A stretch of 37,609 bases of DNA from Promethearchaeota archaeon (GTDB taxonomy: Archaea; Asgardarchaeota; Lokiarchaeia; Sigyniarchaeales; SOKP01). A program made the position numbers and the translations under genes. Shown in pieces: positions 23,910 to 26,508 of this stretch (position 1 is its first letter; each line of letters starts with the position of its first letter). The stretch lies in the NCBI GenBank assembly GCA_008080735.1, contig SHMW01000039.1, forward strand, positions 1 through 37,609. The letters run 5' to 3'. The notes beneath the pieces are model-generated. The model was not told the origin of the DNA. It was given only the letters and a program-made list of their open reading frames with translations, and searched no databases.

Positions 23910-24602
23910 TTATTTCAGGTATTCTACTTTTTTCACTACTAATGCGAGAGAAATAATAGACGCAAGTCCAATTAGGAATAATGGATAGGCTGATATATTC
24001 ACGATAGCTTCACCTAAAAAATCATAAAAATAGTTATTAAATGAGATATCTACATCACTCATTACCAAGACTTTCCATTCAGAAATTGTTTTATTATTTG
24101 GAACTATATCTGTAACATTTAATTTAGGAAATGTCCATGCAACTGTCTCCCCATTGATTGCGTGAATACCATACTGGATATATTCTCTTATACCTTCGCA
24201 TTTAACGCTACTACTTGATTGTCTTAAATATATGTGGACATTTGCATCTTTTTGATTGGAACTAGAACTATTTATATTAAAATAGATTTCAATTCTAGAA
24301 TCGGAACTTTCATTATAATCCCCATAAAATCCAACCGCTATGGTGAAATTAGGATCATTTTCAGTAATTGTGATATTTTTAAGATCAATTGAAGGGATTT
24401 GCGTGGATGAAGGAATAAATTGATCATTATCTATAGAATATAAATCGTTTGCTTGATCTTTTATTATATTGTCATTACCAATACTTTTCATAACCACTGG
24501 TATAGTTGGTAAACCTTTGGCATGAACAAACTTGGGAAAGAGAGAAATTCCAAACAGAGATAATATCAAAAAGAAGAATATAAGATTTTTTTTATTTAAC
24601 AT
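23910..24602 (-). CDS. Secreted, C-terminally anchored surface protein (Loki-CTERM-like tail)
   Basis: Signal peptide ending VHA, many N-x-S/T sequons, ISAYP + hydrophobic helix + KK tail. Confidence 0.7.
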   Translation of the reverse strand: MLNKKNLIFFFLILSLFGISLFPKFVHAKGLPTIPVVMKSIGNDNIIKDQANDLYSIDNDQFIPSSTQIPSIDLKNITITENDPNFTIAVGFYGDYNESSDSRIEIYFNINSSSSNQKDANVHIYLRQSSSSVKCEGIREYIQYGIHAINGETVAWTFPKLNVTDIVPNNKTISEWKVLVMSDVDISFNNYFYDFLGEAIVNISAYPLFLIGLASIISLALVVKKVEYLK

Positions 24603-24924: not shown

Positions 24925-25161
24925 ATGTTTAAAATAGAAGATGCTCCCACGGGCAGCACAGAGTGTAGTTGGTGTGGAGAGCTCATTAAAAAAGGGTCAC
25001 TTAGACTCAGATTTGCCCCACCAAAAGGCTATAATTATTATTGGCATCAAGAGTGCGGGATTAAATATTTAGAGGGAGTAAAAAGCTTAATAAAAAATGG
25101 TAAACAAGGTCATATTGGAAGGGAAGAGGCCGATAAAGCTCGCAAGGAAGCGGATTTATAA
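24925..25161 (+). CDS. Standalone PARP-type zinc-finger-like protein
   Basis: FKIEDAPTGSTECSWCGELIKKGSLRL..YYWHQEC = C-x2-C-x23-H-x2-C with zf-PARP-like flanks; GAGG SD upstream. Confidence 0.72.
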   Translation: MFKIEDAPTGSTECSWCGELIKKGSLRLRFAPPKGYNYYWHQECGIKYLEGVKSLIKNGKQGHIGREEADKARKEADL

Positions 25162-25260: not shown

Positions 25261-25950
25261 TTAATGTGCTTTCTTGAATCTTCGTAATGGAACGAAAATG
25301 GAAACAATAGATACAAGAAAAATAACAACCATCGGATATGCTAATATAATCGGATTTGAAAAGCCAATAAAGTCAAAATAATATGTTCCCAGAGAATCTC
25401 CCTGGCTTCTTACTAAAACTCTCCATTCAGGTATAGGTCTAGTATTTGGAATTAAATCTGTTATATTCAATTTAGGAAATGTGAAAGAAACAATATTTCC
25501 ATTGATTGTATGGATTCCGTTTTGTATTGTTATACCTTCATGGCTCAATCTACTATTTGGACCTCCAAGAAATGGAGAAATAGAAACTTGAAGCTTAGAA
25601 TTTCTTGCCTCAAGACCGGAGTTATTAACATCTAAATAGATATTAATTATTGAGGTTTCATTAAAGTCTTCATTTAATTCTATTGTCAGAGTATAGTTCA
25701 AACCAGAGTCAGCAAAACTAATTTTTTTAAGATCAATCCAAGCTATTTGCGTTGGTACAGATACATATTGATCTCCCTCTTGTATATATAAATCATCTGT
25801 CTGATCCGTTATTTCCATATCATTTCCAACAGTTCCCATATCGATAGGAAACTCAATTATTCCGTTTGCTCGCCCTAACGGAAGAAAAAGCGAAATAGTT
25901 AAAAAAGAACAGATCAAAAAATATAGAGCAACTTTATTTTTATTTGACAT
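25261..25950 (-). CDS. Secreted, C-terminally anchored surface protein, paralog of 23910-24602
   Basis: Shared DQ..DLY, TQI..IDLK.I and GIH.ING..V..TFPKLN.TD..PN...I.EW.VLV; ILAYP + TM + RRFKK tail. Confidence 0.7.
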   Translation of the reverse strand: MSNKNKVALYFLICSFLTISLFLPLGRANGIIEFPIDMGTVGNDMEITDQTDDLYIQEGDQYVSVPTQIAWIDLKKISFADSGLNYTLTIELNEDFNETSIINIYLDVNNSGLEARNSKLQVSISPFLGGPNSRLSHEGITIQNGIHTINGNIVSFTFPKLNITDLIPNTRPIPEWRVLVRSQGDSLGTYYFDFIGFSNPIILAYPMVVIFLVSIVSIFVPLRRFKKAH

Positions 25951-26144: not shown

Positions 26145-26330
26145 GGCTATAATAGGATTAATACGTGAACTACAAACCCTCTCAAGGGGGTGGCTTCAAC
26201 CATTCGGCTAGGCCTTTGCGATGCTAACTTCATGCGGTTGTTCGGGGCATTCACAGGTCCCCCCATCCCAGCGAACTCGTTATCCGCTGAGCTATGTTGA
26301 TGGCAGCATTCAAGTCTCTATCGTAGGTGA
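26145..26330 (-). ncRNA. Putative TnpB omegaRNA (reRNA) scaffold plus flanking guide
   Basis: Position matches known TnpB guide RNAs (tnpB 3' end through the right end into the flank); predicted guide GUAUUAAUCCUAUUAUAGCC. Boundaries approximate, expression unknown. Confidence 0.5.
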
Positions 26331-26407
26331 GCCCGCACCGAGAACACTCCTTAGAGGTATTAAGGGATCTTATCCCTTAAGGGATGAGTTTTCTCGCATT
26401 TTCAATG
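26165..26407 (-). mobile_element. Non-autonomous IS200/IS605-family mini-element (internally deleted, PATE-like)
   Basis: GC-rich island in AT-rich DNA. Minus strand: TTTAT|CATTGAAAATGCGAGAAAACTCATCCCTTAAGGGATAAG (left-end hairpin) ... GAAGCCACCCCCTTGAGAGGGTTTGTAGTTCAC (right-end hairpin ending TCAC); no terminal inverted repeats or target duplication. Confidence 0.85.
26251..26349 (-). pseudogene. tnpB: tnpB 3'-terminal remnant
   Basis: Hand translation ECSRCGLTYDRDLNAAINIAQRITSSLGWGDL* = second Zn-ribbon CxxC plus RuvC-III DRDxNAAxNI; in-frame TAA at 26377-26379 and no start codon. Confidence 0.88.
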
Positions 26408-26413
26408 ATAAAA

Positions 26414-26467
26414 TTTATATACCACTGATCGATATATATGTCACCGATATATCATTTTTCGATATAT
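26414..26467 (+). promoter_or_regulatory. TATA box and putative PadR operator array
   Basis: TTTATATA at 26414-26421, then exact CGATATAT at 26430, 26445 and 26460 (15-bp period), forming an ATATATC-N7-GATATAT palindrome at 26447-26467. Confidence 0.65.
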
Positions 26468-26508
26468 GATATTTCAGATAGTAATTCTCAATATTTGGGG
26501 TTTTTAAA

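Follow-up and report, generated by a model that had tools for sequence, protein, structure and literature searches.

The window, by which we mean the whole stretch of 37,609 nt that was analysed, is contig C39 of a metagenome-assembled genome (MAG) of a Promethearchaeota archaeon; the MAG comprises 4.15 Mb in 140 contigs, has a GC content of 33.6%, is 93% complete and is congeneric with 'Promethearchaeota archaeon TEKIR_8'. Within the window a short island with a GC fraction of 0.47-0.56 stands out from flanks of 0.20-0.33. It lies between a minus-strand gene (25261-25950, starting at 25950) and a PadR-ABC operon that extends from 26509 onward, where the PadR-like gene starts. Between the island and the PadR-like gene there are three CGATATAT-type repeats (26425-26480), which could be the operator of the PadR-like regulator. 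On the other side, the gene at 25261-25950 has a minus-strand paralogue at 23910-24602; both encode proteins of about 230 aa that combine a signal or anchor at the N-terminus with a membrane helix at the C-terminus, and the similarity of their DNA is 77% over about 100 nt. A small, GC-richer ORF on the plus strand (24925-25161, 78 aa, with a CxxC..HxxC motif) stands alone in an AT-rich spacer.

The island contains an element proper of 243 bp, located at 26407-26165 on the minus strand, which begins directly 3' of TTTAT and ends in TTCAC. Its features, and those of the adjoining bases, are as follows (L279 is the contig of the full-length parent described below).

26408-26412, minus strand: target or transposon-adjacent motif (TAM) TTTAT, with the core TTAT, 5' of the left end and preceding the left end in ten of ten genomic copies
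26367-26407, minus strand: left end (LE), 97.6% identical to L279:715-755 and 94-98% identical to nine other LE copies
26392-26389, minus strand: LE DNA guide AAAA
26388-26369, minus strand: LE hairpin CTCATCCC/TTAA/GGGATAAG
26362-26366, minus strand: filler CCCTT (5 nt) of the deletion junction J1, where the parent on L279 reads ..CCAGGAAATACC..
26208-26361, minus strand: 3' remnant of tnpB, with the zinc-finger half, the RuvC-III motif DRDLNAAINI and the C-terminal tail
26210-26208, minus strand: native tnpB stop codon TAG
26165-26207, minus strand: right end (RE), the 43 nt after the native stop
26197-26194, minus strand: RE DNA guide GAAG, just upstream of the RE hairpin
26191-26176, minus strand: RE hairpin ACCCCC-TTGA-GAGGGT, with a C.A mismatch at A26180
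26169-26165, minus strand: RE terminus TTCAC, including the cleavage motif TCAC (26168-26165)
26145-26164, minus strand: flank GUAUUAAUCCUAUUAUAGCC, which from TnpB biology would be the guide source if an RNA is made

A preliminary description, made from the sequence alone, had reported a 243-bp GC-rich insert with a left-end hairpin after TTTAT and a right-end hairpin ending in TTCAC, and all of these are present on the minus strand. The range that it gave to the element, 26145-26412, is too wide, as it also takes in the target motif (5 nt) and 20 nt of flank regarded as the guide. The termini of the element (CATTG.. and ..TTCAC) do not form an inverted repeat, and the hairpins are subterminal at both ends. 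No transposase gene or intact gene of any kind is found inside the 243 bp; the only coding trace is a remnant of TnpB (..NTSKECSRCGLTYDRDLNAAINIAQRITSSLGWG..), which matches positions 42-60 of Pfam PF07282 with 27.9 bits (cut-off 26.3). As previously described, the remnant has no start codon, but 38 codons rather than about 32 are readable before a TGA.

GC-rich islands of AT-rich archaeal genomes are often RNA genes, and this one might accordingly be a structured RNA gene, or another feature unrelated to transposons, in which the TnpB-like peptide is a coincidence. Searches of Rfam in gathering and E-value modes gave no family, only chance-level matches such as hsp17 (E = 0.07), which lies outside the element, and no tRNA was found in the island by ARAGORN. 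The explanation is ruled out, with a residual probability that we regard as negligible, by the Pfam TnpB domain above the cut-off and by the match to a full-length tnpB element, with which the island is 94% identical over 185 nt.

A protein search led to an intact 398-aa TnpB (P0003) encoded on the public metagenome contig L279, where the full-length parent element occupies 717-2095 (1.38 kb) and follows TTAT. The pieces of the C39 copy are 94-97.5% identical to this parent. A full-length relative from the congener G002 (L069:375-1747; 1,373 bp) lies between TTTAT and TTCAC and carries tnpB only, the product again being 398 aa in length with the D-E-D motifs intact. The parent family is of the IS1341 type, that is, a tnpB-only IS200/IS605 family that never carried tnpA. 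The preliminary description was right in that TnpA is absent, but not in calling it lost; that almost all of tnpB is gone is confirmed, since only the 3' remnant is left in comparison with the 398-aa parent protein.

The deletion junction had been placed at about 26350-26365, and the position is correct; instead of a single junction, however, two are present. At J1 (26367-26361), the LE runs to ..GGGATAAGAT and is followed by CCCTT and then by tnpB from ..AATACCTCTAAGGAG.., with about 1.09 kb deleted relative to L279. J1 duplicates ATCCCTTAA, so that TTAAGGGAT-aag-ATCCCTTAA forms an inverted repeat of 9 bp with no mismatch, which overlaps the LE hairpin (26380-26360). At J2, which is private to the C39 copy, 48 bp were lost in frame (16 zinc-finger codons) between GAGTG repeats (26349-26345). 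The J1 type of deletion also removed a TATA-like box, TTTTAAAT, from the 5' UTR of the parent, whereas the MITEs of the relatives G001 and G003 keep this box. A full-length tnpB donor was thus located on metagenome contig L279 but not in the MAG itself: in the 4.15-Mb assembly, including contigs as short as 240 nt, residues 54-327 of a cognate TnpB are absent, an absence that is not proof because the MAG is 93% complete and some contig ends are unpaired.

The RE core is present in five genomic copies (on C39, C52, C73, C61 and C105), all five of which end in TTCAC and continue into unrelated DNA. The LE is present in about ten genomic copies, TTTAT precedes it in ten out of ten, and the same motif stands before the LE in most relatives. 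Both the predicted TAM and the predicted terminus are borne out by these copies, and the occurrence of TTTAT before and of TTCAC after them is far beyond chance. Across five genomes, 58 copies lose their similarity at one and the same position after TTCAC, which fixes the RE boundary. The flanks past TTCAC are not repeats of the 5' flank, so that there is no target-site duplication. The copies are 94-100% identical. Solo LEs were observed at C101:7145-7195, C10:32158-32201 and C3:38300-38341; each consists of TTTAT and about 40 nt, is cut right after the hairpin and then continues into AT-rich DNA. These may be the scars of aborted or partly deleted elements.

The preliminary description had proposed a search for the empty site, and none was found in the relatives or the metagenome contigs. 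The exact 24-mer of the predicted joint is absent from the metagenome contigs, and in the genus relatives only the PadR gene region is common, with 71% identity. A 15-mer scan of genome contigs returned almost exclusively chance matches, in bacteria.

When separate loci have an internal junction in common, this marks the transposition as non-autonomous. An identical J1 is present at an unrelated site in the copy at C52:19628-19918, and a decayed remnant of J1 with different flanks is found at C58:12089-12154. A second deletion lineage, represented by C62 and by C97 and C73 (joined via a 49-nt overlap), has another junction in common. Because the same internal junctions recur at different loci, the mini-element moved after the deletion, and the element belongs to the class of PATEs and MITEs; the original PATEs (palindrome-associated transposable elements) are those of Haloquadratum. 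The earlier suggestions that copies with the same deletion junction might exist and that the element was mobilised in trans are therefore supported by the C52 and C58 copies. We concluded that 26407-26165 is a non-autonomous PATE/MITE derivative of an IS1341-group IS200/IS605 element, the gene of which was lost before the spread.

The C39 copy arose in three steps. An internal deletion joined the LE hairpin to the last 80 or so codons of tnpB; the resulting element of about 290 bp then moved to new TTTAT sites; and once inserted, the C39 copy was shortened by another 48 bp through slippage and acquired one extra nucleotide and three substitutions. The mover would be a Y1 TnpA that another element provides in trans and that acts on single strands by 'peel-and-paste', and the signals that such an enzyme needs are still present, namely the two subterminal hairpins, the LE guide AAAA with TTAT and the RE guide GAAG with TCAC. 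The only Y1 tnpA of the genome is located at C36:69-437 in an IS605-type element; it reads CTG where its ortholog starts with TTG, and no recognisable LE lies upstream of it. The LE of the G002 ortholog, which lies at L256:1471-1896, has the arrangement ..TGCGAGAAA..hairpin..GAATCGC.. in common with the mini-element family. Judged from these sequences, mobilisation by the C36 Y1 TnpA is plausible.

In work credited to Barabas in 2008 and He in 2015, the TnpA of IS608 and IS605 reportedly recognises the element ends in such a way that a tetranucleotide at the 5' foot of the hairpin matches the cleavage site. The LE pair of AAAA for TTAT follows the AAAG for TTAC of IS608, and the RE pair of GAAG for TCAC follows its GAAT for TCAA. 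In comparison with IS608/IS605 of Helicobacter pylori, the last position of both guide and cleavage pairs has changed in concert in the Asgard family, and there is no tnpA inside the mini-element family. In the IS605-type element of the same genome the IS608 motifs are unchanged, with AAAG/TTAC in the G002 ortholog and TTCAA at the C91 right end.

This second family of the genome (G000), which is of the IS605 type, has both tnpA and tnpB and the ends ..GGTAGTTCAA. Its loci are C36:1-900, C91:16200-16984, C1:103300-104700, C12:1-700, C58:1-500, C97:1-300 and C104:11984-12284. One copy, split over the contig ends of C36 and C91, is probably intact; several others are decayed or internally deleted, and the C1 copy contains stop codons and adjoins a tRNA-like gene.

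The part of the parent that is retained at the 3' end of the C39 copy was aligned with its homologues. By homology to the full-length elements, the position of a scaffold in this part covers the 3' end of tnpB and the RE and ends at the RE boundary, with a conserved core that consists of the last 117-130 nt. The predicted parts of the scaffold in the C39 copy are as follows.

26165-26290, minus strand: predicted omegaRNA scaffold (alignment A1)
26290-26268, minus strand: stem A
26263-26260 with 26247-26244, minus strand: stem B
26254-26249 (GUGAAU) with 26170-26165 (GUUCAC), minus strand: pseudoknot
26240-26197, minus strand: stem C; the terminal hairpin is the RE hairpin (26191-26176)

In the alignment of 58 copies the pseudoknot is formed by the loop of stem B (GUGAAU) and the last six bases (AUUCAC), and 93% of the alignment cells are paired, in comparison with 25-50% in slid controls. 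Double-sided changes were observed in 10 pairs versus 5.8 expected (6 of 500 shuffles reach this value), and the covariation score was 0.142 versus 0.119 (reached by 0 of 500 shuffles), both values coming from close kin and from a structure derived from the same sequences. One pseudoknot pair changes across subfamilies from U-A through U.G to C-G. Covariation thus gives modest support to the predicted stem and pseudoknot architecture. Full-length copies of two subfamilies have an identity of 0.88 at third-codon positions over the last 25 codons, as against 0.58 upstream, and this excess points to a second, non-protein constraint on the 3' end. The fold of 26294-26165 as a single sequence was no better than those of shuffled sequences (z = -0.15), so that thermodynamics alone give no support. 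The C39 copy keeps 34 of the 35 scaffold pairs, the remaining one being broken by A26222. Taking these data together, we consider that the retained 3' module, of about 105-130 nt, probably corresponds to a complete TnpB omegaRNA scaffold; its function is inferred from sequence comparison. The conservation of the 3' end could instead largely serve the recognition of single-stranded DNA by TnpA.

It had been claimed that the deletion spared the omegaRNA portion. In the C39 copy the conserved structured region lies entirely within the retained 3' part, and the claim also holds across the genus, since no mini-derivative with an intact RE has fewer than the last 117 nt. A 230-bp MITE with three copies retains 117 nt, a 309-bp MITE with at least 11 copies retains 129 nt, and single derivatives retain approximately 140, 145, 167, 208, 256, 322 and 336 nt; the derivative at L071:2627-3014, which retains only about 87 nt, has also lost the RE end. 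If breakpoints were uniformly distributed, the expected number in the range from 45 to 117 nt would be about 0.7 of 12, so the retention of at least 117 nt is suggestive only and statistically not decisive.

The smaller of the two MITEs belongs to G001 and is present in three copies of 229-231 bp with one junction (L127:1689-1917, L128:1688-1918 and L129:301-531). The first 125 nt or so, with the LE and the TTTTAAAT box, are here fused directly to the last 117 nt. No smaller form that has proliferated was seen, and stem A of the predicted scaffold is truncated in it. The larger one, of 308-309 bp, occupies at least 11 loci of G003 on L259-L270 (for example L259:113-420) and retains the LE and the last 129 nt and, between them, the TATA-like box and an internal hairpin that is conserved. 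Two types of 3' module occur in it, one of them like the full-length copies of G003 itself, which suggests that the guide-RNA module has undergone recombination or gene conversion. A lower diversity of the 3' core than of the middle was not seen in 11 copies of the 309-bp MITE, in which the core is a mosaic of the two module types.

Compared with its sisters and the parent, the C39 copy has private lesions, namely the 48-bp deletion, one additional G and three substitutions, none of them compensated. The additional G, in the run at 26264-26259, causes a frameshift and thereby the premature TGA at 26253-26251. The substitutions are C>T at 26255 (loop), G>A at 26222 (a pair of stem C) and G>A at 26180 (RE hairpin); of the four small private changes, the last two, A26222 and A26180, are stem-breaking. 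Since no cognate tnpB is present in the assembly and the copy's own promoter box is gone, the C39 copy is most likely a recent, slightly decayed passenger and not a working guide gene. The earlier proposal of TnpB loading in trans or of a domesticated guide RNA is not supported, in view of the missing cognate tnpB, the deleted TATA-like box and the private lesions.

If a cognate TnpB were available, a transcript reaching into the flank would be expected to direct that TnpB to cut the site left behind on excision, TTTAT|GTATTAATCC.., the predicted TTTAT-dependent target being GTATTAATCCTATTAT; recombination after the cut would restore the element, and the mini-element would hitch-hike on both TnpA and TnpB. 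The C39 copy might accordingly be an active parasite that consists of the omegaRNA only, is served by an unassembled or unbinned full-length copy, is transcribed from a flanking promoter, loads TnpB in trans and is retained by homing. The LE contig ends of C74 and C50 and the RE contig ends of C61 and C105 are unpaired, and a full-length copy could for this reason be missing from the assembly; an intact parent, 94-97% identical, does occur in the metagenome. The copies are young, as judged from their identity of 94-100%, 34 of the 35 scaffold pairs are intact, and PATEs bearing an omegaRNA are expected to act in trans (PMC10055086). Against this stand the absence of internal tnpB sequence from all 4.15 Mb, in contigs down to 240 nt, the loss of the copy's own promoter box and the stem-breaking private changes, which are uncompensated. 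The string TATATAAA at 26419-26412, just upstream of the TAM, might serve as a promoter, but such TATA-like strings are common in this genome at 34% GC. A TTTAT-flanked second target of the guide, for which the preliminary description had proposed a search, was not found elsewhere in the genome, where the only other exact 12-mer is without a TAM. We consider an active parasite unlikely.

The location of the element in a divergent promoter region, with its 3' end pointing at the minus-strand gene 195 nt away, raises the alternative of a domesticated guide or regulatory RNA that would act on the adjacent promoters together with a TnpB-like protein, whether nuclease-dead or of another kind. Other TnpB-like ORFs are indeed encoded on C9 and C88, but these proteins are of different families, with about 30% identity. 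The flanking region is not conserved in the relatives, sister copies lie at unrelated sites, the guide is a mere insertion flank, and the C39 copy shows lesions instead of conservation. This alternative is thus very improbable. As potential TnpB partners of the element, the families on C9, C88 and C91/C58 were all rejected at about 30% identity, the C91/C58 family also on account of its different ends (..GGTAGTTCAA). The recent passenger, left by a mini-element that had spread after gene loss, is the reading that we retain for the C39 copy, with a probability of roughly three in four.

Elements of this kind have been reported in bacteria. Meers et al. (2023; PMC10055086) described PATE-like elements in Geobacillus stearothermophilus and stated that PATEs 'often encode omegaRNAs' requiring TnpB in trans, and a PATE with IStron ends is known from C. 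difficile (bioRxiv 10.1101/2023.11.20.567912). Like these, the mini-element has LE and RE subterminal hairpins, no protein gene and several copies, is inserted 3' of an invariant short motif with no duplication of the target, would need TnpA in trans and retains the guide-RNA region that overlaps the RE. It differs from known PATEs in its host, an Asgard (Promethearchaeota) archaeon, in its tnpB-only parent and in its junction, which is without the parent promoter box and has a 5-nt filler duplicating a hairpin arm.

In the omegaRNA of ISDra2 the scaffold is 116 nt long, and its 3' end forms a pseudoknot with a segment near the 5' end (Nakagawa et al. 2023, PMC10097598). The predicted scaffold of the mini-element, of about 105-130 nt and likewise with a predicted pseudoknot of this layout, also spans the end of tnpB and the RE, stops where the RE stops and has its terminal hairpin next to the guide. 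The two have no sequence similarity, the structure presented here is comparative and predicted, the TAM is TTTAT and not TTGAT, and the host is archaeal. Closer in host are the sotRNAs of Halobacterium, which derive from the 3' part of IS1341-type tnpB (Gomes-Filho 2015, cited in PMC10097598; PMC12558985). These are archaeal, sense-overlapping RNAs from the same part of the same type of gene as the predicted RNA of the mini-element, i.e. omegaRNAs; whereas their genes are full-length and the RNAs were detected by experiment, the gene of the mini-element is deleted and its RNA is predicted.

An omegaRNA-bearing mini-element is a kind of element already described and not a new idea, and because trans-dependent PATEs of this sort are known, the current understanding is unchanged. 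What is added is a well-documented Asgard example of the formation of a PATE/MITE from a TnpB-only insertion sequence, with exact junctions, the TAM TTTAT, the motifs for recognition of the ends and, for a TnpB of 398 aa, a compact candidate scaffold of about 105-130 nt. It is of use for annotation, as such islands escape gene callers and Rfam, and for those who mine archaeal genomes for TnpB/omegaRNA pairs. A further idea, which we put forward tentatively and hold to be rather doubtful, is that the gene-less minis of the genus have been selected as hyperparasites consisting of the guide RNA only, which swap their scaffold by recombination to match the resident TnpB subfamily, as the two 3'-module types of the G003 MITE might illustrate. 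If this were true, the minis would keep exactly the TnpA signals and the omegaRNA scaffold, guide cassettes would outnumber and outlive nuclease genes, and Asgard archaea would possess a natural trans-acting TnpB/guide system.
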